DNA of 64,000 nt from Flavobacteriales bacterium (lineage in GTDB: Bacteria > Bacteroidota > Bacteroidia > Flavobacteriales_D > Sanyastnellaceae). Below are positions 7,725 through 61,552 of this stretch, one piece after another. Every line of letters begins with the position of its first letter. Positions within the stretch are counted from its first letter, which is position 1. The notes under the pieces are model-generated. The model was given only the letters and a program-made list of their open reading frames with translations. It did not search any database and was not told the DNA's origin. The translations under genes and the position numbers were made by a program. The stretch covers positions 11,094-75,093 of the forward strand of contig JBIKZA010000001.1 of the NCBI GenBank assembly GCA_044354975.1, in the 5' to 3' direction.

Positions 7725-8630
7725 ATGTCAGCAGTAACTGATTTTCTTAGCAACCACTCAGACTTGGTGGCTGTAGCTACAGCAGCAGCTGCGGTTACAT
7801 TCCTTGGTTTTGAAGCGGGCTGGAATAGCATTATGGCCCCAGAGCGTAATGAGCAGGTATTCGAAAACAAAAACAAAGCATACGGAGCCTATAGAATTCG
7901 TTCTAGGTACGGCAGCGTTCTGGCTATAGCATTGTTTTCTGGTATTTTCTTGGTATCTGGTGCGCTAATTGTGCCAGTCATTTTAGCCAAAGGCGAAAAG
8001 AAAGAGAAAGAGGTGAAGGTGGAAATGAACACAGAAATGATTGCGCCGCCACCAACGGATCCAAACGAGCCGCCACCGCCACCGCCACCGCCGCCACCAC
8101 CGCCACCACCGCCACCAACGGTTCGTCAAATTCAATTTACATCGATTGTTATTGAAGAGAACGTAGAGACTCCTCCACCATCTCAAGATAAATTGAAAGA
8201 TGAAAAAATTGCAGACGAAACCACCGAAGGCGATGACGGTCCAATGGGCCCATCAGATGCAATAGCGGTTTACACTCCAGTCGATAACAAAAACGACAAA
8301 GACGCCCCTTTGCAATTCGTGCAGGAAATGCCGGCTTACCCGGGTGGGGAGAAGGCGTTGTATGAGTTTTTGTACAACAACATTGCATACCCTGAGCAAG
8401 AAAAATCTCAGAACATTGAAGGAACCGTTTTCGTAAACTTCGTTGTTGAGAAAGATGGAACACCGACTAACTTCACCGTAACACGTGGTGTAGAAGGTGG
8501 AAAAGGATTGGATAGAGAGGCATTGGGAGCTTGTAAGAAATTAGGCAAGTTCAACCCAGGAAAGCAAAACGGGGTTTCTCAACGTGTATTCTTGACCATT
8601 CCGATTAAATTTACTCTTGCAGATAATTAA
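7725..8630 (+). CDS. tonB: TonB-family energy transducer
   Basis: TM anchor, poly-Pro spacer (about 20 consecutive P) and a C-terminal TonB domain (YPGGEKALYEFL..EGTVFVNFVVEKDG). Confidence 0.8.
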   Translation: MSAVTDFLSNHSDLVAVATAAAAVTFLGFEAGWNSIMAPERNEQVFENKNKAYGAYRIRSRYGSVLAIALFSGIFLVSGALIVPVILAKGEKKEKEVKVEMNTEMIAPPPTDPNEPPPPPPPPPPPPPPPPTVRQIQFTSIVIEENVETPPPSQDKLKDEKIADETTEGDDGPMGPSDAIAVYTPVDNKNDKDAPLQFVQEMPAYPGGEKALYEFLYNNIAYPEQEKSQNIEGTVFVNFVVEKDGTPTNFTVTRGVEGGKGLDREALGACKKLGKFNPGKQNGVSQRVFLTIPIKFTLADN

Positions 8631-8650
8631 TCGATAAATACTTACTGAAA

Positions 8651-8677
8651 AGGGTTGGCTTGGGTCAACCCTTTTTT
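8651..8677 (+). terminator. rho-independent terminator after tonB
   Basis: Hairpin agggttg/caaccct followed by a T6 run. Confidence 0.7.
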
Positions 8678-8690
8678 ATTTTTGAATTGA

Positions 8691-13212: not shown

Positions 13213-15021
13213 TTGAACAACGACAATCGCCGGTACACCTTCTTGTTTATTGTGGGAACCATCTGTGTCATATACATAGTGCGTCTTTTCGCGCTCCAGG
13301 TTGCCACCAGCGAATGGAAGAATAAAGGTTCGCGATTAACGGAGAGAGAAGTAGTTGTTTATCCTTCACGAGGAAACATCTTCGACCGTAACGGAAAAGT
13401 TTTGGTAACGAATCAAACCGTATACGACCTGATGGTTTTGCCGAAAGAAGTTTTGCCTTTCGACACGCTTGAATTCTGTAAGTTGGTGAATCTACCTTAC
13501 GACGAGTTGAAGGAAATCTTAAAAAAATCAACTACCTATCCGAACGTTAAGTACAAGCCCTCTCCGGTTATTAAACAAATGCTCCCGGAGGAGTATGCCC
13601 TTTTCGCGGAGCGGTTGTATAAATTCCCTGGCTTTTTTGTTCAAGCGAGAACTTTACGCACTTATCCCGAAAGCTTAGGATCGCTTTTATTGGGCGATGT
13701 CGGAGAAGTGAACAAAGACATTCTGGAAAAGCATCCAGACTATCGCAAGGGCGATTATATTGGACTGAATGGAATAGAAAAGTCATACGAGAAAGAGCTT
13801 CGTGGAAAACGCGGAATTAAATATGTGTATCGCGATAATCTGGGAGTTGAGCACAGCGTTGCGAACGGGCAACTCGATAGTGCCGCGCAAGAGGGAGTGG
13901 ATTTGTATGCGACAATTGACGCTGAGTTGCAGAAGTATGGTGAGCAGTTAATGCAGAACAAGCGAGGTTGTATTGTAGCCATTGAACCTTCAACAGGTGA
14001 AATTTTAGCGCTAGTTTCGGCCCCAACCTTTGATCCTAATTTGTTGGTTGGAAGAGCGCGCGGACAAAACTTCTCGGCCTTAGCTAAGGACCCGATGAAG
14101 CCGCTTTTCAATCGCGCTACACAAGCACAATACAGACCGGGATCTATTTTCAAATTGGCGCAATCGCTTACGGCGTTGCAGCTGGGATCCATAACCAAGG
14201 ACACACGTATTCCATGTAACAGAGGGCTTATTGGTTGTCACGGGGCACATAGCATGGACGATTTAGAAATGGCTATTGTCCACTCCTGCAACCCCTATTT
14301 TAGAGGCGTGCTGCAACGTGTCGTTGAAGCGAACAGAGATCCAAACAGCCGTGCGAAAGACGCAGCTATTGGACTATCAATTTGGAATGAACAAATTCGA
14401 AAGTTGGGCTTCGGTTCGAACTTGGGAAGTGACCTTCCTGGAATGAAAAAAGGGAATGTTCCAAGTGCTGAATATTACAACAAGAAATACGGAGTGGAGG
14501 CTTGGAATTTCGCAACCATTTATTCCATTGCAATTGGTGAAGGTGAGATGTTGATTAACCCCGTTCAAATGTGCAATCTTGTCTGCATCATTGCAAATCG
14601 GGGCTTCTATGTTCCCCCGCACACCGTAAGACAAATTGGAAGAGACGGATCAGCACGTGCCGAATATGTAACGCGGGTAGATGTTGGAGTAAAACCAGAA
14701 TATTTTGAAACCGTAGTAAACGCTATGGAAAAAGTAGTTGGCCCCGGCGGAACGGCCAATAGCATTAAGCTTTCTGATATTGTTATTTGTGGAAAAACAG
14801 GAACGGTTCAGAACGAACCCCGCGAAGACCACAGTGTGTTCGTTTGCTTTGCTCCGAAAGAGAATCCGAAAATTGCATTGGCTGTTTATGTGGAATATGC
14901 AGGATTTGGAGGAACGTGGGCGGCTCCTATTTCAAGTTTAATGATTGAAAAATATTTGAAGGGAGGAACCACGAATAAGGGAAGAGAAGAGTTAATTATG
15001 AACGCGAAAATTTTGAACTAA
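13213..15021 (+). CDS. mrdA: penicillin-binding protein 2 (elongasome transpeptidase)
   Basis: 602 aa with TM anchor, PBP dimerisation domain, and transpeptidase motifs SIFK and KTGT. TTG start. Confidence 0.9.
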   Translation: MNNDNRRYTFLFIVGTICVIYIVRLFALQVATSEWKNKGSRLTEREVVVYPSRGNIFDRNGKVLVTNQTVYDLMVLPKEVLPFDTLEFCKLVNLPYDELKEILKKSTTYPNVKYKPSPVIKQMLPEEYALFAERLYKFPGFFVQARTLRTYPESLGSLLLGDVGEVNKDILEKHPDYRKGDYIGLNGIEKSYEKELRGKRGIKYVYRDNLGVEHSVANGQLDSAAQEGVDLYATIDAELQKYGEQLMQNKRGCIVAIEPSTGEILALVSAPTFDPNLLVGRARGQNFSALAKDPMKPLFNRATQAQYRPGSIFKLAQSLTALQLGSITKDTRIPCNRGLIGCHGAHSMDDLEMAIVHSCNPYFRGVLQRVVEANRDPNSRAKDAAIGLSIWNEQIRKLGFGSNLGSDLPGMKKGNVPSAEYYNKKYGVEAWNFATIYSIAIGEGEMLINPVQMCNLVCIIANRGFYVPPHTVRQIGRDGSARAEYVTRVDVGVKPEYFETVVNAMEKVVGPGGTANSIKLSDIVICGKTGTVQNEPREDHSVFVCFAPKENPKIALAVYVEYAGFGGTWAAPISSLMIEKYLKGGTTNKGREELIMNAKILN

Positions 15022-16343
15022 TGGCAGCGTCAGGGAAACAGAACTTACAACTCGACTGGGGCACTATTGCGCTCTACGGGACGTTGGTTTTGTTCGGATG
15101 GCTTTCTATTTATAGCGCTGCGTTTAATCCGCTACTGCCAAGTCCGTTCACGTTTTCCGAAGAGTACGGAAAACAGTTGGTATGGATAGGGGCTTGTATC
15201 TTTTTAATCGTAGTCATCCTTTATTTAGACGCGGAGGTGTTCAATAAACTAGCCGTTTACATTTACTTCTTTTTTGTGCTTTTGCTCATGCTCGTCTTGG
15301 TCATAGGAAAGGAAGTAAATGGAGCGAAGGCGTGGTTTGGAATTGGTGATTTTGGAATTCAGCCGAGTGAGTTTTCTAAAATTGGCGTCGGGCTATTTCT
15401 GTCCAAATTTATTTCCAGCTCCGGTTTGCAGTTGAAGAATTTGCGAATGCGTATTCAGGCTTTTGCAATCATTGGATTACCGGCGTTTTTGATTTTGCTT
15501 CAACCCGATGTGGGTTCGTTATTGACTTTCCTTGCTTTCATTTTGGTGATGTATCGTGAAGGGATGTCGGGCACTGTCCTGATCGCAGGATTTGCCAGTG
15601 TGGTCATTGGAACTTTAAGTATTGTTATTGGCGCGGGCAGAACGACTTACCCTTATTTCGGAGAGATGAGTTCTATTTGGACTTTTATTGTTTCCCTTTT
15701 CGCGTTATCAATTCTTGCTTTGATTTTCGTTCGGAATTTTGTTGTCCCACGATCAAGAAGATTGCTTTATTCTGTGGTTGTCATCTCGATGGTGCTAGCC
15801 TCGAGTCTAGCTTTTTCGATTAACTACATCGTAGATAACGTGCTTGAAAAACACCACAAAGAGCGTATTTACGTTATGCTTTCACTTCCGGTTGAACGAC
15901 AAGATGCGACCTACAATTCCGAGATGGCGAAAATTACAGTAGGCTCCGGGGGATTAATTGGAAGAGGGTTTCATCAAGGACCAATGACCCAAAATAATTA
16001 CGTGCCTGAGCAATGGACCGACTTTATTTTTAGTGCAGTCGCAGAAGAGTGGGGATTCCTTGGAAGTGTAACTGTAATTCTTATGTTCTTCACCCTTATA
16101 TACCGATTGGTGGTATTGGCAGAGCGGCAACGTTCTCAATTTTCTAGGGTGTACGGCTATTGCGTAGCAGCAATCATTTTTATGCACCTCCTCATTAATA
16201 TTGGAATGGTGCTCGGGTTAGCGCCTATTATTGGTATTCCTCTGCCCTTCTTTAGTTACGGCGGATCTTCGCTTATGGCGTTTACGATTCTACTCTTCAT
16301 TATGATTCGTTTGGACGCTGAGCGGCTCAGCATCTTTAGATGA
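15021..16343 (+). CDS. rodA: SEDS-family peptidoglycan polymerase RodA
   Basis: 440 aa FtsW/RodA/SpoVE-type polytopic protein; TAATG overlap with mrdA. Confidence 0.9.
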   Translation: MAASGKQNLQLDWGTIALYGTLVLFGWLSIYSAAFNPLLPSPFTFSEEYGKQLVWIGACIFLIVVILYLDAEVFNKLAVYIYFFFVLLLMLVLVIGKEVNGAKAWFGIGDFGIQPSEFSKIGVGLFLSKFISSSGLQLKNLRMRIQAFAIIGLPAFLILLQPDVGSLLTFLAFILVMYREGMSGTVLIAGFASVVIGTLSIVIGAGRTTYPYFGEMSSIWTFIVSLFALSILALIFVRNFVVPRSRRLLYSVVVISMVLASSLAFSINYIVDNVLEKHHKERIYVMLSLPVERQDATYNSEMAKITVGSGGLIGRGFHQGPMTQNNYVPEQWTDFIFSAVAEEWGFLGSVTVILMFFTLIYRLVVLAERQRSQFSRVYGYCVAAIIFMHLLINIGMVLGLAPIIGIPLPFFSYGGSSLMAFTILLFIMIRLDAERLSIFR

Positions 16344-16413
16344 TGACCCTTCGGGATGACCACTTCGTGGATGACGCTGCGCGATGACCCTTTGGGATGA
16401 CGCTGCGCGATGT
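16339..16413 (+). repeat. mini-hairpin array, ATGA linker (5 units)
   Basis: tga|ccc-ttc-ggg|atga|ccac-ttc-gtgg|atga|cgc-tgc-gcg|atga|ccc-ttt-ggg|atga|cgc-tgc-gcg|atg. Starts on the rodA stop codon. Confidence 0.85.
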
Positions 16414-16513
16414 AAGGCATAGTTAACATTTCAACGTTTGTAAGGTTTGTAAGAACGTTTTCTTCTGTTGTAACCTAATTTCTACTTTAGCGTAATATCG
16501 AATATACGCGCAC

Positions 16514-19500
16514 ATGAAATCTCTACACACATTATTCCTTTCAGTTTTACTTGCACTCACTTGCAGCTTAGCATTAGCAAATAATTCTTTTTTCATTGAA
16601 AACAAGGGGCAGGTAAAAAACGAAAAGGGGATTCCGGATCGCTCCGTATTGTATACATACGCGACTTCTGAAATGGATGTGTTCATTCGCAAGACAGGTT
16701 TAACCTATCAATTCAAGCGTTATAACAACGACGGGGTTTACGCGGAACGTGTAGACGTGAATTGGAAGGGGTGTTCTGAGGGCTCTGTTGCGAAAGGATT
16801 ACAAGAGTTGGGTTACACAGAGAATTATTTTGTTGATGGAAAATCAAATTCGGCAAACGCGTTTCAAGAAGTGCGCGTTTCGAATATTTATCCGGGCGTG
16901 GATTGGAGAATGTACATTACTGAAGCTGGATTGAAATACGAGTTCATTGCGGAAAGCGGCCAAGCTGCAAAACAAATTAGCATGCAAGTTGAAGGGGCGG
17001 AAGAATTGGAAAAGTGTTCCAACGGCAGCATTCGAATTAAAGGTGAAATGGGACAAGTGAGCGATGCGAAGCCGGTTTATTTCAATCAAGAAAAAAGTAT
17101 TGAAGGAAATTTTATTGTGAATGGAAAGTCAATTCAATTTGAAATTCCTTCCAACACCGTTGGTGCAATTGTTTTAGACCCAGAGGTTATTTGGACTTCT
17201 TACTACGGCGGGACAGGCCTAGATGATTCACGTGGAATTTTCACTGACGCGAATGGCGATTATTATTTGACAGGCGCCACCAATTCAACCACATTAATAT
17301 CATACTTGGGTTATCAAGGGTTATTGGGAGGGAGCAATGATGTGTATGTAGTGAAGTTCAACGCGTTGAATCAACGCTTGTGGGCAACATACTACGGCAG
17401 AACGGGTAACGATGTTGGAAACGATATTGTTGTTGATCCTTACGGAGGAATTTATGTAGCAGGAAGCACAAGTTCAATGTCCGCATTCGCGGTGAATAGT
17501 CAGCAGACTGTTTATGGTGGCGGCCCGAAAGATGGATTTGTTTTGAAATTGTTTCCAGACGGAACGTTGGAGTGGTGCTCTTATTACGGCGGCAGTGGCG
17601 ACGAGCAATTGACATCGTTGTCTGTCGGATTTCAAGGCGAGGTCTATTTCATTGGAGAAACGAGTTCGACTGATTTGATTACTTTGGACGCCTTGCAAAG
17701 TGCATATGGCGGAGGTGCAAGTGATTTTTATTTGGGGATGATAGATCCGGGAGGGTTCCTTCTTCGCTACACTTATTTTGGTGGCACCGGGGCGGAATTG
17801 GCGGGAGACCTTGTTGCGACAAGCGATATCAATTTGTATTTCACGGGAACTACAAGTTCTGCTGCAGGAATGGCTGCAGGTGGCGCACAGAACACATACG
17901 GCGGCGGGGCGTATGACGGCTTCTTTGCTAAGATAAACAGTGGGAATTTAATTGAATGGGCTTCCTACATAGGTGGAGCCAGTGAAGACAGAGCGGAAGC
18001 CATTCATGTTGCGGGCGACCAGCTTTACATAGTTGGAAAATCCGGCTCAATAAGTGGAATTTCTACCCCCGGTGCTGCGCAAGTGTTCAATGGAGGAGGA
18101 AGTTTCGACGGCTTCTTAGCTTCTTATATGATTGATGGAATGGTGAATTGGAAAACCTATTACGGCGGTTCTGGAAACGAATCGCTTTGGGGAGTTACAA
18201 CAGACGCTGCAGGAAGTGTTTTCATTACTGGGAATTCAACCTCTTCCAATATGGGAGATAATGGTTTTCAGAATGCCAATGGCGGATTAACCGACATTGT
18301 TTTTGCAGGATATTCTATTGATGGTATTCGTTATTGGAGTTCGTATTTAGGCGGAATCGCTGATGAGTCGGTGAGTGACCTTGTGATTAATTCAAATCAG
18401 GAAATGTATTTTGCTGGAAGTTCGGCATCTTCAAATCTTGCTGTAGGTGGGTACGAAGCCACGAACAATGGCGGTGGTGAAGCGTTCTTCGGGAAGTTGA
18501 AAAACTGCGATTATCCTTATTTAACCGTTCACATTACCGGCGACACTATATTCTGCGACGGTAAGTCTGCTATTTTATGCGCAGGTGGTGCCGATCATTT
18601 CCTGTGGTCAACAGGCGACACAACAGCGGCAATAGAAGTAGACGCGCCTATGGTTGTTTATCTTATTGGAACAAACACACCTGGCTGCAGCACACGCTCC
18701 GACGATTACACCTTTACCGTTTTGCCACAACCAACGATTAATGTAACTGCAGATGGTCCTTTAACGTTTTGTGGTGATGTTTCCGTAAATCTTACTGCCT
18801 CTGGAGGTATTGGCTATGAATGGAACAGTGGTCCAACAACGGAAACAATCACTGTTAATGAGTCTGGAAATTACGCGTGCACTGGAATAAATGAATTCGG
18901 GTGCGAAGGAAGTAGCAACCAGTTGAGTGTTGAAGTCTTCGATTTGCCAGAAGTTGCCATGGGACTTTCCACCGACAGTATTTGTATATCGGCCGATCCG
19001 GTGGGAATTGTAGGACTGCCATTGGGCGGCACTTATGTAGGAGATGGAATAGTTGGAAACTCAATTGACCCCGGTTTAGCTGGCGGTGGAGCGCACCAAG
19101 TTTATTACACATTTACAGATGCGAACGGTTGTTCGAATTCGTCTGATGTGTTCGACTATTTCGTGTTATTCGAGCCAACAGTTCTTTTCCTTTCGCAAGA
19201 CACGGTAATGGCTGGAGATCCTCCGGTTGAAATGACAGGAATTCCTTCAGGCGGATATTACACCGGGTTTGGGGTAAGCGGAAATTTATTTTATCCTGAA
19301 TTAGTAGCCCCAGGATTTTATCAGGTTACCTATAACTATGTAGACGATAATGGCTGTACCAATAGAGACACACAGGTTATTTATGTTTGTTGTGTGGGAA
19401 TAGATGAATTTGCATCGGTAGAACCGAAGTTATATCCGAATCCGACTGAGGGGTTGTTGAATTTCACTTTGGGAACTCATTCTGCCCGTGCGTATCGCAT

Positions 19501-20226: not shown

Positions 20227-20250
20227 GCTTAGGTTAGTTAGGTATGAGAC

Positions 20251-20276
20251 AACCCCTTCTCGCGAAGGGGTTTTTT
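20251..20276 (+). terminator. rho-independent terminator
   Basis: aaccccttc-tcgc-gaaggggtt hairpin followed by a T6 run. Confidence 0.8.
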
Positions 20277-20291
20277 CGTGAAATAAATAAT

Positions 20292-20324
20292 GCAGTTTGT
20301 GTACCTATATAAGCAGTTTGTGTA
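20292..20324 (+). promoter_or_regulatory. perfect 12-bp direct repeat GCAGTTTGTGTA x2 with 21-bp period upstream of the hybrid kinase gene
   Basis: Copies at 20292-20303 and 20313-20324, 16-48 nt upstream of ATG 20340. Confidence 0.4.
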
Positions 20325-20339
20325 TAAATTAGCAAGCCC

Positions 20340-25046: not shown

Positions 25047-25280
25047 TTGCTTTGCAAGGTTCTACGAAAGATGCAATTATAAGATGCAAGCAAGATTCTT
25101 CGAAAGATGTGTTACAAGATGCTCCGCAAGATTCTTCGAAAGATGTGTTACAAGATGCTCCGCAAGATTCTTCGCAAGATGTGTTACAAGATGCTCCGCA
25201 AGATTCTTCGAAAGATGCCTTCGGCAAGTATTTCGTTAGCGTAGCTTCTTTTGAAAAATCTTACGAAGGATCTTTCAACA
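25047..25280. repeat. mini-hairpin array, AGA linker (15 plus-oriented units incl. a 36-bp higher-order repeat x3, then about 2 degenerate inverted TCT units)
   Basis: aga|ttc-ttc-gaa|aga|tgt-gtt-aca|aga|tgc-tcc-gca| repeated. Starts 1 nt after the folA stop. Centre is cttttgaaaaatctt at 25248-25262. Confidence 0.9.
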
Positions 25281-29211: not shown

Positions 29212-29997
29212 ATGAAACTAACGCTGGAAAAAGACGGGCGACGCTATTCATTTCAAACCGAAAAAGGAATGGACCTTAGCATTTCTATGAATCCAAATGG
29301 TCCGCGCGCTTGGTACGTAGCGCCTATGCGCATTGAACCCGTGCGCACTGAACAATTCTTGGGTTCTGTAGCCGAAGGAGGGGCAGTGAATTTTCGTGAT
29401 GTGTATTTTAATCCACATGGACACGGCACGCACACGGAGAATGTGGGACATATCATTGATACGGATTTCCCCGTGGTGAATAGCATTGGGTCTTCGCATT
29501 TTATGGCGAAGCTGATAACGGTGGAGTTGATGAAACAAGATGCTATGCAAGATTCTACGAAAGATGTTTCACAAGATGCTTCGCAAGGGGATTGGGTAGT
29601 TAACGAGCAAAGTCTGGAGGGTTTTGATTTGAAAGTTGAAGCGCTTATTATTCGCACAAAACCGAATGATCATTCGAAAGTGCAGAGACAATACTCAGGT
29701 ACGAATTTTCCTTATTTAACAATTGGAGCTATGCAGCGTATTGTTGATGCGGGTGTTCAGCATTTGCTCATTGACTTGCCCAGTGTAGATCGCGAGGAAG
29801 ATGGCGGAGCGTTGGAGGCACATCATTTGTTTTGGAATGTTCCGGCAGAGCCGAACTTTCAGAAAACCATTACAGAGTTGATTTACGTTCCAAATGAAAT
29901 TGCAGATGGGACTTATCTGTTGAATTTGCAAGTTTCAAATTTCGCTAACGATGCTGCTCCGAGTAGACCTATGCTTTTTGATCTAGCGGAAGAATAA
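29212..29997 (+). CDS. cyclase-family (kynurenine formamidase-like) protein carrying an in-frame repeat insertion
   Basis: HGHGTHTENVGH metal-site-like motif and family-like C-terminal half. Contains the AGA mini-hairpin units at 29538-29587. Confidence 0.65.
   Translation: MKLTLEKDGRRYSFQTEKGMDLSISMNPNGPRAWYVAPMRIEPVRTEQFLGSVAEGGAVNFRDVYFNPHGHGTHTENVGHIIDTDFPVVNSIGSSHFMAKLITVELMKQDAMQDSTKDVSQDASQGDWVVNEQSLEGFDLKVEALIIRTKPNDHSKVQRQYSGTNFPYLTIGAMQRIVDAGVQHLLIDLPSVDREEDGGALEAHHLFWNVPAEPNFQKTITELIYVPNEIADGTYLLNLQVSNFANDAAPSRPMLFDLAEE
29538..29587 (+). repeat. mini-hairpin array, AGA linker, 4 units, inside a CDS and in frame
   Basis: aga|tgc-tat-gca|aga|ttc-tac-gaa|aga|tgt-ttc-aca|aga|tgc-ttc-gca|ag, encoding QDAMQDSTKDVSQDASQ. 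Confidence 0.85.
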
Positions 29998-33751: not shown

Positions 33752-35665
33752 ATGAAACCATTCTGCGAAGATTTATTTGGGTACAAGCGCATTAAAACGA
33801 GCTCAGTAACCATTGGTGAATTAACCATGGGCGGCGACGCGCCCATTCGTGTGCAGTCAATGACCACGGCCGACACCATGAATACCGAAGCAACCGTTGC
33901 CGAGAGTATTCGCATGATTGAAGCCGGTTGTGAGTTGGTGCGTATTACAGCTCCAAGTAAAAACGAGGCTGAAAATCTTCGCAACATTCGCGAAGAACTT
34001 CAAAAAGCGGGTTTTAACATTCCGCTGGTTGCCGACATTCACTTCACTCCGAACGCCGCAGAGATTGCAGCGCGCATTGTAGAGAAGGTTCGTGTGAACC
34101 CGGGGAACTACGCAGATAAAAAGAAGTTTGAGGAAATTGTTTACACAGATGAATCTTACGCTGCTGAATTGAAACGCATTCGCGACCGATTCATTCCACT
34201 TGTGGAAATTTGCAAAGAACACGGAACAGCGATGCGCATTGGAACGAACCACGGTTCGCTTTCAGATCGCATTCTTAGTCGCTATGGTGACACCCCTGAA
34301 GGCATGGTGGAATCTGCCATGGAGTTCATCCGCATTTGTCTCGATTGCAATTACAAGAATTTGGTTATTTCCATGAAAGCGTCTAATCCGCAAGTGATGG
34401 TGCAAGCCTATCGTTTGTTGGTTCAAACACTTTTGGAAGCGGGCGAAGTTTTTCCATTGCACTTAGGAGTAACAGAGGCGGGCGATGGAGAAGATGGAAG
34501 AATTAAATCTGCTATTGGAATTGGCACTTTGTTGGAAGACGGCATTGGCGATACCGTTCGTGTTTCATTGACCGAAGCGCCGGAAGCAGAAATGCCTGTA
34601 GCGAAATTACTGGTCGATCGTTACGCGAATAGAACTCTGGGATTACATATTCCGGCGGAAGAAATTCCAATTGATTTTTTCTCTTATTCAAGAAGATACA
34701 CACACGAAGTTTTAAATATTGGGGGAAAGAATGTCCCGCGTGTATTTGCAGATTATTCGAACCGCGAGTCGATTACTGCGGCTTCACTATTCGCAGTGGG
34801 ATATGCCTATTCAATAGATATGGACAAGTGGAATTTGTCTGATTCGGCTTGTGATTATTTGTTTGTTGGAAAGAACACGGTAAATTTTGAAATTCCCGGA
34901 ACCCTTGGTGTTGTCATGGAACACGCAACATGGCTTCAACATAAAAATAGAGACCGTCATTATCCAGTTTTATTTGCAAGCGAATACATCCAACCGAATG
35001 AACGTTCGGGTGAGTTGAATTTTGTTGAAGTAGAATTGGAAAATTTAACAGAAGAATTTTTATCTGTGTTGAAGGCAGATTCAACGGTTGTGTTGTTGTT
35101 GAAGTCTTCGCATGAGTATGTTGTGCAGCATAGAAGAACAGCTATTTTCAAATTGATGAATCACGGAGTGAATTGTCCCGTAGTTCTTTCTTCCACCTAC
35201 AACATCGAAGAAGAAGCATACACACTTTATTCTTCAACCGACGTAGGAGCCTTGTTGCTAGATGGATTAGGCGATGGAGTTCTTATTTCAAGCAGTCAAT
35301 CTTCTTTGGCGAAATCGAATGCGATTGCATTTGGAATTCTTCAAGCAACGCGCACGCGTATTTCAAGAACTGAATATATTTCTTGTCCAAGTTGCGGAAG
35401 AACATTGTTCGACCTTCAAGAAACCACGGCGAAAATTCGTTCGCGCACTTCGCATTTGAAGGGCGTGAAGATTGGAATTATGGGATGTATTGTGAACGGT
35501 CCGGGAGAAATGGCAGATGCCGATTACGGTTATGTTGGAACAGGTGTAGGAAAGATTACACTTTACAAAGAAAAGAATGTGGTGAAGAAGAACATTGACG
35601 AAGCGGAAGCTGTCGATGAGCTTATTTCACTCATCAAGGAATATGGCGATTGGGTGGAACCCTGA
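33752..35665 (+). CDS. ispG: 4-hydroxy-3-methylbut-2-enyl diphosphate synthase (long form)
   Basis: 637 aa; GcpE N-terminal TIM-barrel motifs, an inserted domain, and C-terminal CPSCGR..GCIVNGPGE Fe-S motifs. Confidence 0.93.
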   Translation: MKPFCEDLFGYKRIKTSSVTIGELTMGGDAPIRVQSMTTADTMNTEATVAESIRMIEAGCELVRITAPSKNEAENLRNIREELQKAGFNIPLVADIHFTPNAAEIAARIVEKVRVNPGNYADKKKFEEIVYTDESYAAELKRIRDRFIPLVEICKEHGTAMRIGTNHGSLSDRILSRYGDTPEGMVESAMEFIRICLDCNYKNLVISMKASNPQVMVQAYRLLVQTLLEAGEVFPLHLGVTEAGDGEDGRIKSAIGIGTLLEDGIGDTVRVSLTEAPEAEMPVAKLLVDRYANRTLGLHIPAEEIPIDFFSYSRRYTHEVLNIGGKNVPRVFADYSNRESITAASLFAVGYAYSIDMDKWNLSDSACDYLFVGKNTVNFEIPGTLGVVMEHATWLQHKNRDRHYPVLFASEYIQPNERSGELNFVEVELENLTEEFLSVLKADSTVVLLLKSSHEYVVQHRRTAIFKLMNHGVNCPVVLSSTYNIEEEAYTLYSSTDVGALLLDGLGDGVLISSSQSSLAKSNAIAFGILQATRTRISRTEYISCPSCGRTLFDLQETTAKIRSRTSHLKGVKIGIMGCIVNGPGEMADADYGYVGTGVGKITLYKEKNVVKKNIDEAEAVDELISLIKEYGDWVEP

Positions 35666-35823
35666 CGCAGAGCGTAGATGCTTTGCAAGATTCCGTTGGA
35701 AAGATGTTGCACAAGATTCCGTTGGAAAGATGTTGCACAAGATTCCGGAGGAAAGATACTTCGCAAAAATTACCTTTTGAAAAATCTTGCATAGCATCTT
35801 GTGAAACATCTTACGAAGTATCT
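35666..35823. repeat. mini-hairpin array, AGA linker (about 8 plus-oriented units, centre, 3 inverted TCT units)
   Basis: aga|tgc-ttt-gca|aga|ttcc-gtt-ggaa|aga|tgt-tgc-aca|... cttttgaaaaatctt (35774-35788) ...tct|tgc-ata-gca|tct|tgt-gaa-aca|tct|tac-gaa-gta|tct. Spans exactly from the ispG stop to the purK stop. Confidence 0.9.
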
Positions 35824-36964
35824 AGGATACAACCCTTACTTCTTTCAAGAATCGTCTGGCAATATCCTTCGCGTCTTCTAGATTCGTGTTGCACACCGTA
35901 ATGTGTCCCATTTTACGGAAGGGTTTGGTGTCTTCCTTTCCATATAAATGAATATAAGCACCTTCGGTGTGAAGGACGTCTTCTATGTTTTCGTAGCGCG
36001 CTTTTCCTTCAAATCCTTTTTCACCCAAGAGGTTAATCATAACAGCTGGAGTGCGAAGTCCTGTGCTGCCTAACGGCATGTTCAAGATCGCACGAAGATG
36101 CATACCGTATTGCGAAACGAAGCATGCTTCAATGGTGTGGTGGCCGCTGTTGTGCGGACGAGGAGCGATTTCATTCACCAATAAATTTCCATCTTCGGTG
36201 AGGAATAATTCAATGGCTAATAAACCCACGTGTTCGAGTTTGTTGGCAATCTCGGTTGCGATTTTTTTCGCGTTGATTTCTATTTCAACGTTCACGTTGG
36301 CAGGAGAGAAAATGAATTCTACTAAGTTGGCTTCCGGATTGAATTCCATTTCCACCAAAGGAAAAGTAGCCAGTTCTCCGCTTTCATTTCGAGCAACAAT
36401 AACAGCCAGTTCTTTTACGAATGGAACGAATTCTTCCAATACGCTGGGCGCATTGAAGGCCGATTTGAATTCCGCTACCGTGCGAAGTGGAGTTACTCCT
36501 TTGCCGTCGTATCCGCCTTTGCGAAGCTTCTGCATGAACGATCCCTCATCTTTAAACAACATCGCATCTTCTGTATTAGCGATCAGGTGGAAAGGAGCCG
36601 TCGGAATGTTGTTCGCTGTGTAAAATTGTTTTTGAAGACCTTTGTCTTGAATGATGCGAAGGGCTTGTGGTGTTGGGAAAACTTTCTTTCCAAGTCTTTC
36701 CAATTCTTCGAGAGCTTCAATGTTCACGTGTTCAATTTCAATGGTCAGAACATCAACTGTTTTTCCGAAATCGAGTACGGTTTGATAGTCGTTAAAATTT
36801 CCAACAACGAAATTATTCGCAAGGTCAGCGCAAGGTGCATTTGAAGAAGGGTCTAAAACAGAGATATGAATATTGAAGTTAACGGCTTCTTGAATAAGCA
36901 TTCTTCCTAATTGTCCACCACCTAAAATTCCGAGTTTAGTGGTTAGGTCTATCGTGTGATTCAT
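35822..36964 (-). CDS. purK: 5-(carboxyamino)imidazole ribonucleotide synthase
   Basis: 380 aa ATP-grasp protein; N-terminal LGILGGGQLGRM and PurK-like sequence throughout. Confidence 0.92.
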   Translation of the reverse strand: MNHTIDLTTKLGILGGGQLGRMLIQEAVNFNIHISVLDPSSNAPCADLANNFVVGNFNDYQTVLDFGKTVDVLTIEIEHVNIEALEELERLGKKVFPTPQALRIIQDKGLQKQFYTANNIPTAPFHLIANTEDAMLFKDEGSFMQKLRKGGYDGKGVTPLRTVAEFKSAFNAPSVLEEFVPFVKELAVIVARNESGELATFPLVEMEFNPEANLVEFIFSPANVNVEIEINAKKIATEIANKLEHVGLLAIELFLTEDGNLLVNEIAPRPHNSGHHTIEACFVSQYGMHLRAILNMPLGSTGLRTPAVMINLLGEKGFEGKARYENIEDVLHTEGAYIHLYGKEDTKPFRKMGHITVCNTNLEDAKDIARRFLKEVRVVS

Positions 36965-39806: not shown

Positions 39807-40775
39807 ATGAAAAATATTGCAGTGGTTTGTGGGGGGTATAGTGGCGAGTCAGTTGTTTCTATGCGCAGCGCGAAGATGGTGATGGAGAATATTGATCGTT
39901 CGAAGTTCGAGCCCACGCAGATTGTGATTGAAGAAAAGCGTTGGTATGCGTTGGTGAACGAAACGGAAGTTGCAGTTGATCGCAATGATTTTTCAATAGT
40001 TGTAGATGGAACGAAAACCACGTTCGACGGGGTGTTCATGATTGTTCATGGTACACCAGGAGAGAATGGATTGCTGCAAGGATATTTCGATACGATTGGA
40101 ATAAAATACACGACAGGCGATGTCTTGAACATGGCGTTAACGTTCAATAAGAAAGCGACTACACGTACATTAGGTGCTATGGGTTATCGCGTTGCGCGTT
40201 CAATTGTTATTCGCAAGGAAGAAGAAATTACAGCAGCGGAAGTGGTTGCGAAAGTGGGTTTGCCTTGTTTCGTCAAACCGAATTGTGGTGGAAGCTCCAT
40301 TGGCACTTCGCGCGTGAATGAAGAGGGCGGAATTATGGAGGCTATTTCTCGCGCAAGAAATGAAGACGAAGACATTATTGTGGAAGAATTTATATCTGGA
40401 AGGGAAGTCACTTGTGGCGTTATTGTTATGAATGGAAAGCCAACGGCCTTGCCTGTTACAGAGATTGTAAGCGAGACGGAGTTTTTCGATTATCAAGCGA
40501 AGTACGAAGGGAAGAGCAAGGAGATTACTCCCGCTCCAATTAGTGAATTTCACTACGCGCGTGTTCAGGAATTGTCTGCTCGTATTTACACCGATTTAAA
40601 TTGTGGCGGAATGATCCGCGTAGACTTCTTGTTACCCGACGAAGAACCTTCTGTAATTGAAGTGAACACCGTACCTGGTTTCAGCGCAGCCTCTATTATT
40701 CCTCAGCAAGCCGCGGTTATTGGAATGAGTAAGATGGAGTTGATATCAACCGTACTGGCTTCAATCACTTTGTGA
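39807..40775 (+). CDS. ddl: D-alanine--D-alanine ligase
   Basis: 322 aa ATP-grasp protein; GGYSGESVVS, HGTPGENG and NTVPGF motifs. Confidence 0.93.
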   Translation: MKNIAVVCGGYSGESVVSMRSAKMVMENIDRSKFEPTQIVIEEKRWYALVNETEVAVDRNDFSIVVDGTKTTFDGVFMIVHGTPGENGLLQGYFDTIGIKYTTGDVLNMALTFNKKATTRTLGAMGYRVARSIVIRKEEEITAAEVVAKVGLPCFVKPNCGGSSIGTSRVNEEGGIMEAISRARNEDEDIIVEEFISGREVTCGVIVMNGKPTALPVTEIVSETEFFDYQAKYEGKSKEITPAPISEFHYARVQELSARIYTDLNCGGMIRVDFLLPDEEPSVIEVNTVPGFSAASIIPQQAAVIGMSKMELISTVLASITL

Positions 40776-40931
40776 TCAATCATCTTCGATGATCAATCTG
40801 ACTTGGTCAGATCAATCACTGCGTGATCAATTGCTCTGCAATCAATCCTACGGAGTAATCGGAACGATTGATCGCAACGCGATTGATTCGAAGAATTGAT
40901 CTGACGAAGTCAGATTCAGAAGTACTGATTC
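40761..40931. repeat. mini-hairpin array, ATCAAT linker (6 plus-oriented units, then about 6 inverted ATTGAT units)
   Basis: tcaat|cac-ttt-gtg|atcaat|catc-ttc-gatg|atcaat|ctgac-ttg-gtcag|atcaat|cac-tgc-gtg|atcaat|tgc-tct-gca|.. then tcg-gaa-cga|ttgat|cgc-aac-gcg|attgat|..|ctgac-gaa-gtcag|att|cag-aagta-ctg. The outer units lie inside the last codons of ddl and glyQS. Confidence 0.88.
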
Positions 40932-47831: not shown

Positions 47832-47996
47832 GAATGCGTTGCGAAGGCGAATGGCTTTGCGAAGGCAACAAGCATTGCGAGGGTGAATTCTTCACGAGGG
47901 TCCTTCGGACGAGGGTTGCAAGCAACGAGGGTCTTCGACTTTCGCAATTACGCATCCCGATAGCTATCGGGAGGAATAAAGCCGAAGGTTTTCAAT
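47832..47996. repeat. mini-hairpin array, GAAG/GAGG linker (plus-oriented) followed by inverted GGAAT-type units
   Basis: gagg|gtgaa-ttc-ttcac|gagg|gtcc-ttc-ggac|gagg|gttgc-aa-gcaac|gagg|gtc-ttc-gac| then cccgatagctatcggg and aaagcc-gaa-ggtttt. Confidence 0.85.
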
Positions 47997-48189: not shown

Positions 48190-48252
48190 ATCATAAAATA
48201 GGAATTACGAATCCCGATAGCCATCGGGAGGAATAAAGCCGGAGGTTTTCAA
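48190..48252 (-). repeat. isolated copy of the GGAAT-type unit pair
   Basis: ggaattacgaatcccgatagccatcgggaggaataaagccggaggtttt is near-identical to 47945-47995. Confidence 0.8.
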
Positions 48253-48969: not shown

Positions 48970-49165
48970 AATGTCTTCGACGAATGTGCAAGCACGAATG
49001 TTGCAGGGCAACGAATGTTCTCTGAACGAATGCCTGCGGCGAATGTCTTCGACTGTCATTCAACAACGCAGTTCTAATTACGAAGTAGGAATTATGAAAT
49101 AGGAATTACTTAGTTCCAATTACGCAGTAGGAATAAAACCGAAGGTTTTCCAATAACGCAGTTAA
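48969..49165. repeat. mini-hairpin array, GAAT linker (6 plus-oriented units) then inverted GGAAT/CCAAT-linked units (about 6)
   Basis: gaat|gtc-ttc-gac|gaat|gtgc-aa-gcac|gaat|gttgc-agg-gcaac|gaat|gttc-tct-gaac|gaat|gcc-tgc-ggc|gaat|gtc-ttc-gac ... aat|tac-gaa-gta|ggaat|tat-gaa-ata|ggaat|..|aaaacc-gaa-ggtttt|ccaat|aac-gca-gtt. The last unit overlaps the rlmF stop. Confidence 0.88.
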
Positions 49166-50049: not shown

Positions 50050-50195
50050 TTTTTGTCAATGTTTGTTGAGTTCTTCGTTCAATTGTAACCTGAACTTCCG
50101 CGTCAATTCGGGACTTTTCAGAAACTTGCTGAAAGGTAGCTTTACCCTGTTTCCTGACTTCCCGAAGAGTATATGCCATGCTTTTTATAATTCGA

Positions 50196-50203
50196 CAAAC
50201 CTA
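50196..50203 (-). promoter_or_regulatory. candidate -7 promoter box (TAGGTTTG) upstream of rlmF leader
   Basis: Exact TAnnTTTG match on the minus strand, 17 nt upstream of the small-ORF ATG at 50179. Confidence 0.3.
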
Positions 50204-50211
50204 GTCAAAAA

Positions 50212-50247
50212 AGAACAAAAAAAATGACCCGCGTTTCGCGGGTCATT
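50212..50247 (-). terminator. rho-independent terminator after the 665-aa T9SS cargo gene
   Basis: atgacccgcg-aaac-gcgggtcat hairpin followed by a T8 run on the minus strand. Confidence 0.85.
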
Positions 50248-50268
50248 AGTTGATTTGCTAAGGCGGAA

Positions 50269-52842: not shown

Positions 52843-52915
52843 TCGGGATGACAGGACTTGAACCTGCGACCACACGCCCCCCAGACGTGTACTCTACCAA
52901 CTGAGCTACATCCCG
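52843..52915 (-). tRNA. tRNA-Pro (anticodon GGG)
   Basis: Hand-folded cloverleaf: acceptor cgggatg/catcccg, D arm gctc-agttggta-gagt, anticodon arm cacgt-ctGGGgg-gcgtg, T arm gcagg-ttcaagt-cctgt. Confidence 0.9.
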
Positions 52916-61336: not shown

Positions 61337-61345
61337 ATTAAGAAT

Positions 61346-61377
61346 AAAAAAAGCCGCTTCATTGAAGCGGCTTTTTG
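61346..61377 (-). terminator. rho-independent terminator after tRNA-Gln
   Basis: aaaagccgcttc-aatg-gaagcggctttt hairpin followed by a T run on the minus strand. Confidence 0.8.
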
Positions 61378-61381
61378 ATCG

Positions 61382-61452
61382 TTGCCCGAACAGGATTCGA
61401 ACCTATATAAACTGCACCAAAAACAGTTGTCCTGCCATTAGACGATCGGGCA
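61382..61452 (-). tRNA. tRNA-Gln (anticodon TTG)
   Basis: Hand-folded cloverleaf: acceptor tgcccga/tcgggca, anticodon arm actgt-ttTTGgt-gcagt, T arm atagg-ttcgaat-cctgt. Confidence 0.85.
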
Positions 61453-61552
61453 ATCTCACTTCTCCTTCGAAAAGCGACTGCAAAATAAATACTTTCTTTT
61501 CATAACACCAAGTATTTTTCTGTTTCTATCTTCGTTTTATAATAATAAGCCT

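Follow-up and report, generated by a model that had tools for sequence, protein, structure and literature searches.

Short palindromes that can form hairpins and lie at gene 3' ends and between convergent genes are known as REP, BIME and REPIN elements (PMC2817692, PMC3116915, PMC3733652). They occur in both orientations within a cluster, fall into several families per genome and are lineage-restricted, and the same is true of the repeat arrays described here in the window, i.e., the whole stretch of 64,000 nucleotides of a Flavobacteriales contig that was analyzed. Unit, tag and order set these arrays apart from REP and BIME elements: the units are 9-17 nt long, compared to 20-40 nt, with free stem sequence (43 distinct 9-nt units in the AGR family); GTAG and CGTC are missing, the linkers being AGR, ATGA, TCAA, GAAT, GAGG, ATTCC and GTTGG; and, instead of alternating, the units of each arm stand in direct tandem, with a single switch of orientation, at the junction. 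The arrays also differ from REP elements in reaching up to 21 units and in entering ORFs in frame. No RAYT (Y1 HUH) gene was found among the 20 proteins scanned (19 from the window and one from contig L196).

Several other systems resemble the arrays in part. The BrickBuilt MITE of Porphyromonas gingivalis is likewise an intergenic composite of the Bacteroidota, with inverted ends and a variable internal tandem repeat; its unit, however, is 23 nt long and has no spacers, its leader and tail are fixed, and it lies 49-591 nt from genes (PMC4596501), whereas the present arrays touch or overlap stop codons and consist of palindromic units. With regard to MITEs in general, the arms are inverted, TAG flanks the insertion between ispG and purK with no such flank at rodA, and the length varies from 0 to over 250 nt, both extremes being found at one site (the cyclase gene). 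Borg tandem repeats share pervasiveness, lineage specificity, fast evolution, intergenic as well as in-frame location, and disordered inserts; the parts of that report considered here describe perfect amino-acid repeats and make no mention of hairpin units, whereas our arrays combine distinct palindromes, a shared linker, and inverted arms (PMC9879509). The TAACTGA heptamers of Beggiatoaceae, Cyanobacteria and some Bacteroidetes are also short, tandem and intergenic, with a patchy distribution and an obscure origin; they are contiguous, identical, located mostly just upstream of start codons and, in the sections of the source considered here, hairpins are not mentioned (PMC4679880). The mini-hairpin GCGNAGC is a biophysical motif that occurs naturally at phage ssDNA origins, and not a genomic repeat family (PMC13037366).

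CRISPR arrays have conserved repeats of 23-47 nt and unique spacers of similar length; here, constancy is limited to 3-5 nt, and the segments that vary measure 9-17 nt and are themselves palindromic, so that a CRISPR was rejected. Integron attC sites lie at the 3' end of mobile cassettes, and each is one imperfect palindrome, 57-141 nt long, that bears conserved core sites; at our locus the flanks are housekeeping genes in conserved synteny, and a single long palindrome is absent, so that an attC site was rejected as well. Rickettsia palindromic elements are palindromic and enter protein-coding genes in frame without destroying them; they are single elements of ~100-150 bp with conserved sequence, unlike the tandem arrays of 12-nt units. 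Head-to-tail copies, numbering from 0 to 21 at one site, are a property of minisatellites; minisatellite units, however, are copies of a single sequence free of structural constraint, whereas the units here differ and yet keep complementarity, and plain slippage was rejected. A reading as protein-coding repeats was rejected as well. The gap between ispG and purK yielded no call of an intrinsic terminator, i.e., of a G+C-rich stem of at least 5 bp with a T/U run behind it. A search of the open-access full-text literature found no description of such arrays, which are a real, non-random repeat class that, apparently, has not been described before.

Results

Organization of the gap between ispG and purK

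The ispG gene (ORF 33752-35665, plus strand; NF002534, E = 1.5e-236) and the purK gene (ORF 35822-36964, minus strand; NF004679, E = 5.7e-117) are separated by 156 nt (35666-35821). The initial annotation had described repeats that span from one stop codon to the other, and the entire gap indeed consists of repeats: they begin at the base adjoining the ispG stop codon TGA (35663-35665, plus strand), and their final linker overlaps the purK stop codon TAG (cta on the plus strand; 35822-35824, minus strand). The first hairpin, acgcAGAgcgt, occupies positions 35665-35675; an imperfect form of it is present in relatives that have no array. It is followed by the plus arm (35676-35756, plus strand), i.e., six perfect AGA-spaced units with stems of 3-4 bp and 3-nt loops (tgcTTTgca, ttccGTTggaa, tgtTGCaca, ttccGTTggaa, tgtTGCaca and ttccGGAggaa), with AGA also after the last unit. 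A non-periodic junction of 27 nt, tacTTCgca-aaaattacc-tttTGAaaa (35757-35783), leads to the minus arm (35784-35823, minus strand), which has three units with an AGA linker (TCT on the plus strand). On the plus strand this arm reads ATCT-tgcATAgca-TCT-tgtGAAaca-TCT-tacGAAgta-TCT, and its units on the minus strand are tgcTATgca, tgtTTCaca and tacTTCgta. Thus, the proposed succession of plus-oriented and oppositely oriented units was borne out, with six units on the plus strand, three on the minus strand, and the 27-nt junction between them. Tandem Repeats Finder (TRF) reported a period of 26 with 2.8 copies and 95% matches at 35686-35757. An independent metagenome contig (L001; 99.986% identity over 7143 nt) carries an identical array between ispG and purK; therefore, the array is not an assembly artefact.

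Structure and polarity of the repeat units

The units are 9-17 nt long, with a 3-nt loop closed by a stem of 3-6 bp in perfect Watson-Crick pairing. The linker of 3-5 nt is constant within each array, whereas the stems vary from unit to unit. We collected units of the AGR family by linker spacing alone (AAGRT chains), so that palindromy was not required. Perfect Watson-Crick palindromes accounted for 108 of the 114 units, and G·T was found in just 2 of the 6 mismatched ones. When identical 9-nt units were counted once, 43 remained, and the fraction of paired cells in this set is 96.9%, compared to 71.2% in shuffles; the covariation score is 0.683 versus 0.186, a value reached in 0 of 500 shuffles, and pairing drops to 30-60% if one partner is shifted by 1-3 columns. 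Apart from the linker and the outer T/A, no position is invariant. The half-sites vary freely (TGC, TTC, TCC, TGT, TAC, TTT and others), and complementarity alone is kept.

The loops are oriented by the linker: we counted TTC 66, TGC 40, TAC 11 and TCC 7 times, versus GAA 6 times and GCA once. On the strand with the AGR linker, 69% of loops of this family are TNC, the other strand carrying GNA. For example, the commonest unit, tgcTTCgca, is tGCGAAGCa on the complementary strand and contains GCGAAGC. GCGNAGC forms mini-hairpin DNA with a Tm of 70-76 °C, and GNA is the sole triloop that gives this structure (PMC13037366). The motif is held by 21 of 23 AGR junctions; many units are closed by T-A, not by C-G. 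In the window as a whole, GCGNAGC is found 56 times, versus 22.3 ± 4.5 in dinucleotide shuffles; coding DNA accounts for most of the 49 occurrences that do not belong to arrays. Small hairpins outside the arrays are ~35-40% above shuffles if the loop is GNA or TNC, and there is no general excess of small palindromes there, small hairpins with other loops not being enriched.

All nine arms in the window that abut a stop codon carry TNC on the sense strand of the gene (loops 34 TNC to 1 GNA), whereas isolated small hairpins in coding DNA have the reverse bias (GNA 112, TNC 53). Most often, two arms are opposed across a short junction, and the TNC arm then invariably comes first and the GNA arm last in the 5' to 3' direction, whichever strand is read; the rule extends to arrays within the cyclase ORF and between co-directional genes of contig L196 (both described below). 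The sense-strand TNC polarity is not predicted by a neutral model; it is the main reason against dismissing a functional or an enzyme-driven origin.

As a control, metagenome and viral sequences were scanned for four AAGRT linkers at 12-nt spacing. Among the matches listed (at least 120 metagenome contigs and at least 121 viral ones), ~5% had a palindromic unit, which is close to chance. Palindromic arrays among these matches were monotonous, almost all of the listed matches were ordinary coding or satellite repeats, and diverse palindromic units were found in L196 only.

Other arrays in the window

The window was screened for runs of consecutive perfect hairpins, each with a loop of 3 nt, and the result was compared with shuffles. 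The window has at least seven arrays, with chains of 8-10 hairpins, compared to at most 4-6 in shuffles; one relative has a chain of 21. There are seven linker families: AGR, ATGA, TCAA, GAAT, GAGG, ATTCC and, in relatives, GTTGG. The arrays make up ~15% of the non-coding DNA of the window (the genome is compact), and TRF periods across them are 12, 26 and 36 nt. Besides the array at ispG-purK, an AGA array lies between folA and a yjbR-like gene (25047-25273), with a plus arm of 36-nt period (25047-25226), a junction that holds GCGTAGC (25227-25248), and a minus arm (25249-25273). Another AGA array (29537-29590, plus strand), which encodes QDAMQDSTKDVSQDASQ, is located in frame within a gene of the Pfam Cyclase family. 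A single-arm ATGA array is found downstream of rodA (16341-16412, plus strand), the rodA stop codon falling within its first linker, and a two-arm TCAA/TTGA array lies between ddl and glyS (40761-40915). A GAGG-family array is at 47839-47940 (plus strand), and a GAAT arm (plus strand, 48970-49055) is opposite an ATTCC arm (minus strand, 49065-49161) located downstream of rlmF, the pair spanning 48970-49161.

Two repeats of other kinds were observed as well. A 50-nt repeat is present at 47946-47995 and 48203-48252, with copies 94% identical, and partly at 49129-49153; it includes an 18-nt palindrome, tcccgatagctatcggga, and the terminator-like aaagccGAAggtttt. Each copy comes after a small ORF, and a related piece was found in the ddl-glyS gap of L008. 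A tandem repeat, CCACCGCCA / CCGCCA, within an ORF (8070-8117) has the appearance of a common coding repeat that has nothing to do with the hairpin arrays.

The 15-mer shared with the folA array

The arrays at folA and ispG-purK had been proposed to share a 15-nt sequence, cttttgaaaaatctt (35774-35788, minus strand), as the defined core of a composite element. The sharing itself is correct: the window contains two exact copies, at 25248-25262 and at 35774, and, when up to 2 mismatches are allowed, 9 matches versus 0.99 expected, 7 of the 9 being within arrays. The sequence is, however, not a core. Read on the minus strand, as AAGA-tttTTCaaa-AG, it is an ordinary unit plus linker of the AGA family, namely the innermost unit of the minus arm. 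The identity between the two arrays does not extend by even one base on either side, and the minus arm at ispG-purK has common 20-mers with the array in the cyclase ORF, longer than the strings common with the folA array. In the relatives L003, L007 and L010 the 15-mer is on the other strand than in the window because the whole junction is inverted there. Therefore, of the composite element, the two opposite arms and a non-periodic junction, which is kept in these three relatives, stand, and the defined core does not. A centre is not a general feature either: in AGR arrays of the cyclase ORF, the arms meet directly (AGA|CCT, junction length zero) or one arm stands alone, the ATGA array after rodA is a single arm without a centre, and the arms at ddl-glyS, like those at 48970-49161, come from two unrelated families. 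The 15-mer is a unit that two AGA-family arrays have in common. The further suggestion that more than local slippage was involved is half right, as block duplications of the slippage type are obvious; slippage alone is nonetheless insufficient because families sit at different sites in different genomes.

Lineage distribution and turnover at orthologous sites

The closest relatives (L002-L012 and L064) have ispG amino-acid identities of 91-98%, compared to ~70% for the next relatives (L013-L015), which places the window in one genus-level clade of uncultured freshwater Flavobacteriales. Within the clade (~0.3 Mb) the array density is 1.46 per 10 kb. The ispG loci of other Bacteroidota (68 loci, 1.08 Mb) have 0.25 chance chains per 10 kb, and regular linkers are missing from all of these chains. 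Because of the high density in the clade and the absence of regular linkers from the 68 outside loci, we consider the arrays lineage-specific. Orthologous arrays are present in at least 10 metagenome-assembled genomes (MAGs) from differing studies; MAGs of this clade belong to the Mendota, Trout Bog and Řimov lake series.

At ispG-purK, there is no array in L005, L008 and L012, in which the gap is ~9-12 nt (tga cgcagagcc tag gatac). L003, L007 and L010 carry arrays of the AGA type, the left arm of which has 2-8 units, and there are AGG/CCT arrays with other units in L002, L004, L006, L009 and L064, the L002 array being a hybrid. The 27-nt junction is kept in L003, L007 and L010 although the left arm varies, and the junction in the window is its reverse complement. 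Two further flips of this kind were detected, in the AGG-type ispG junction (L009 versus L006) and at folA (L002 versus L012); for the three places, the scores are 22, 15 and 16 in reverse complement versus 6, 8 and 8 in direct comparison. The junction AGG-TCGCTAYGCGAAGCGTC-CTT recurs at the ispG site (L004, L006, L064), at the folA site (L009, L012) and in L196. TAG is present on both sides of the ispG-purK insertion, and there is no duplication at the rodA site. The frequency of TAG stop codons beside arrays (3/8) does not differ significantly from the overall 20%.

The cyclase gene (PF04199; 29212-29997 in the window) has an open ORF in every relative and holds 0-21 units: none in L012, one in L006, four in the window, 6-9 in others and 21 in L007, the protein of which is thereby longer by ~70 residues than that of the window and by 84 residues than that of the array-less L012. 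In L008 and L009, a 48-nt composite block with both orientations is triplicated.

The folA site is occupied in 8/8 clade genomes (window, L002, L003, L006, L007, L008, L012, L322), with differing content. For example, L322, in which RodA identity is 89%, has an ATGA array at the folA 3' end (13726-13830) and none at its own rodA 3' end; the ATGA array of rodA is also missing in L323 and L324. The ddl-glyS site is occupied in every clade genome examined, by five families in modular combinations: TCAA, GTTGG and ATTCC were seen as left arms, and TTGA, ATTC (GAAT on the minus strand) and CCTC (GAGG on the minus strand) as right arms. The last codons of ddl together with the stop codon are array sequence (first unit, 40761-40775 in the window), and the C-terminus of the protein varies with the array family (..SITL*, ..GTTLL* and ..GTTLLELRC* among the window, L003, L004 and L010). 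In L009 only, ~1 kb of extra DNA lies between the ddl-glyS arms (~15560-16560); it could encode a minus-strand gene, and its position suggests that arrays may serve as sites of insertion or recombination.

No linker family is confined to one site: each was seen at two or more sites unrelated to one another, and genomes differ in the family that occupies the same site. Among AGR arrays, one linker variant per genome is common (all AGA in the window and L007, all AGG in L002, L004 and L009), and mixed AGA/AGG linkers are present in L003, L006 and L008; the sharing of linkers within a genome hints at homogenization between loci. Comparison of orthologous sites thus indicates that arrays expand, contract, vanish, and switch both the linker (AGA to AGG) and the family.

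The 2.6-kb contig L196 carries two-armed AGR arrays at 168-335 and 1698-1870, flanking a gene for an AAA_14/DUF4143 ATPase. These arrays sit between co-directional genes, the second arm being antisense to both. Because of a gene end of the type IX secretion system (T9SS) type, the contig apparently comes from a related organism.

Discussion

A putative structure-driven repeat and its possible mode of evolution

The reading that we rank first, with a probability of about 0.5, is that tandem mini-palindrome arrays are repeats driven by structure that evolve fast and are either selfish or close to neutral. This reading is ranked first because close relatives lack the array at two sites, arrays are found within an ORF, ordinary terminators exist elsewhere, the pairing across the whole gap is not conserved, and the folding of single arms is weak. 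A role as terminator or insulator comes second and an enzyme-driven origin third; these explanations are not mutually exclusive.

If this reading is correct, arrays would grow and shrink through replication slippage or unequal exchange of blocks of one to four units. The complementarity of stems would be kept on DNA by intrastrand template switching, i.e., quasipalindrome correction, and not by selection on RNA. That complementarity is maintained at the DNA level is suggested by the instability of 3-bp stems with UNC loops in RNA and by the near-absence of G·U pairs. Quasipalindromes are known to mutate through template-switch correction (PMC7202029, PMC3820800). We infer both the slippage and the template-switch steps from sequence comparison. 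Junctions may become inverted via exchange between the inverted arms, and ectopic copying would spread families from site to site; such spread would need a copying mechanism beyond slippage. Arrays would survive where they are harmless, i.e., at the 3' ends of genes, in a genome of high compactness, and within a protein loop that tolerates them, and any effect as 3'-UTR structure or transcriptional insulator would be secondary.

Possible termination or insulation at gene ends

Alternatively, the arrays could be gene-end elements, either structured 3' UTRs or bidirectional terminators/insulators as proposed for REP and BIME elements, that stop or stabilize the transcripts of tightly packed, especially convergent, genes. 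We regard this as possible, with odds clearly below even. The arms abut stop codons and are sense-oriented, as the 34:1 loop ratio in nine arms illustrates, and arrays occupy 4 of the 9 convergent junctions in the window, the other 5 gaps being at most 43 nt. None of the clade genomes examined has an empty folA or ddl-glyS site, although the sequence there has turned over completely, so that some array could be needed there. This explanation does not account for the lack of arrays in close relatives at ispG-purK and rodA, nor for arrays that are in frame within an ORF or between co-directional genes.

The folding evidence is likewise divided. As RNA, the complete gap has a more stable fold than its shuffles, whichever strand is taken (-47.7 kcal/mol, z = -3.45; other strand, -46 kcal/mol, z = -3.26); this strength comes from arm-to-arm pairing, which is not conserved in relatives. 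Single arms, folded with a nearest-neighbor model as RNA or DNA on either strand, are not clearly structured (z from -0.9 to -2.4), with nested pairing between units predicted instead of mini-hairpins; it should be noted that this model gives no bonus to GNA loops, and the folding of single arms is therefore uninformative. In RNA, 3-bp stems closed by a UNC triloop are unstable, G·U pairs are nearly absent, and there is no U tract.

A scan for canonical terminators and promoters found no enrichment, no site of either type in the ispG-purK gap, and no terminator at the array-bearing junctions. The lack of a canonical terminator at these junctions would leave room for another terminating structure; however, the genome has ordinary terminators (G+C-rich stem followed by a T run) at other genes (8631-8690, 20227-20339, 50050-50268 and 61337-61552), and therefore the arrays are not the general terminator. 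Terminator-like sites are not enriched between 24 and 43 kb (18 versus 20.2 expected). In a search of Rfam, the two tRNA genes of the window (52843-52915 and 61382-61452, minus strand) alone reached the gathering threshold, and the best match in the gap at permissive E-values had 17.6 bits versus a threshold of 72.

Possible enzymatic or strand-specific writing

A dedicated nuclease or recombinase, HUH/RAYT-like or otherwise structure-specific, might recognize ssDNA of linker and hairpin, and write and spread the arrays in a manner similar to the REPIN/RAYT system. This we consider unlikely. It would fit the occurrence of each of the seven linker families at two or more unrelated sites with a different family at a given site in different genomes, the recurrence of the AGG-TCGCTAYGCGAAGCGTC-CTT junction at the ispG site, the folA site and L196, the strand-specific coupling of loop and linker, the TAG that bounds the presence or absence of the ispG-purK array on both sides, and the confinement of arrays to one clade. 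Conversely, no transposase or HUH gene was found among the 19 window proteins and the one L196 protein, the stems of units are not conserved, unlike those of REPs, the rodA site has no TAG duplication, and block duplications within arrays require no enzyme.

More broadly, we tentatively suggest that a strand-specific DNA process of the genus may write units of linker and GNA mini-hairpin beside stop codons, copy families from site to site and flip junctions, with the cell perhaps using the hairpins as a boundary between genes; as probabilities go, we place this on a par with the role at gene ends. Such a process might be an enzyme or a mechanism coupled to replication or transcription.

Weaker alternatives

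It is quite improbable that gyrase, or a dimeric protein of the DNA-binding or nucleoid type, uses the arrays as double-stranded binding sites. The dyad symmetry of units, their regular spacing of 12-17 nt, and the several proteins that BIMEs are reported to bind (PMC2817692) agree with such sites; the half-sites, however, are free, with complementarity alone kept, linkers differ among families, and relatives manage without arrays. A chance pattern or an assembly artefact, in favor of which there is the general risk of repeats in MAG assemblies and nothing more, has a negligible probability, given the identical array on an independent contig, the orthologous arrays in at least 10 MAGs, and chain lengths never reached in shuffles.

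Implications

Until now, conservation of sequence has been the defining feature of interspersed repeats in bacteria, whereas the arrays keep architecture alone, i.e., the linker, the perfect stem, and the TNC/GNA triloop. Because the sequence itself is free, neither Rfam nor the standard programs for finding repeats can see them. The arrays provide genes with stop codons and C-terminal residues and have added up to 84 residues to one enzyme. They offer a natural system for the study of DNA-hairpin-driven birth, expansion, inversion and spread of repeats, possibly a new kind of gene-boundary element, and very fast strain markers for abundant uncultured lake bacteria. If a strand-specific writing process is indeed at work in this genus, it would be a new prokaryotic repeat system, distinct from REP/RAYT, MITEs and CRISPR.
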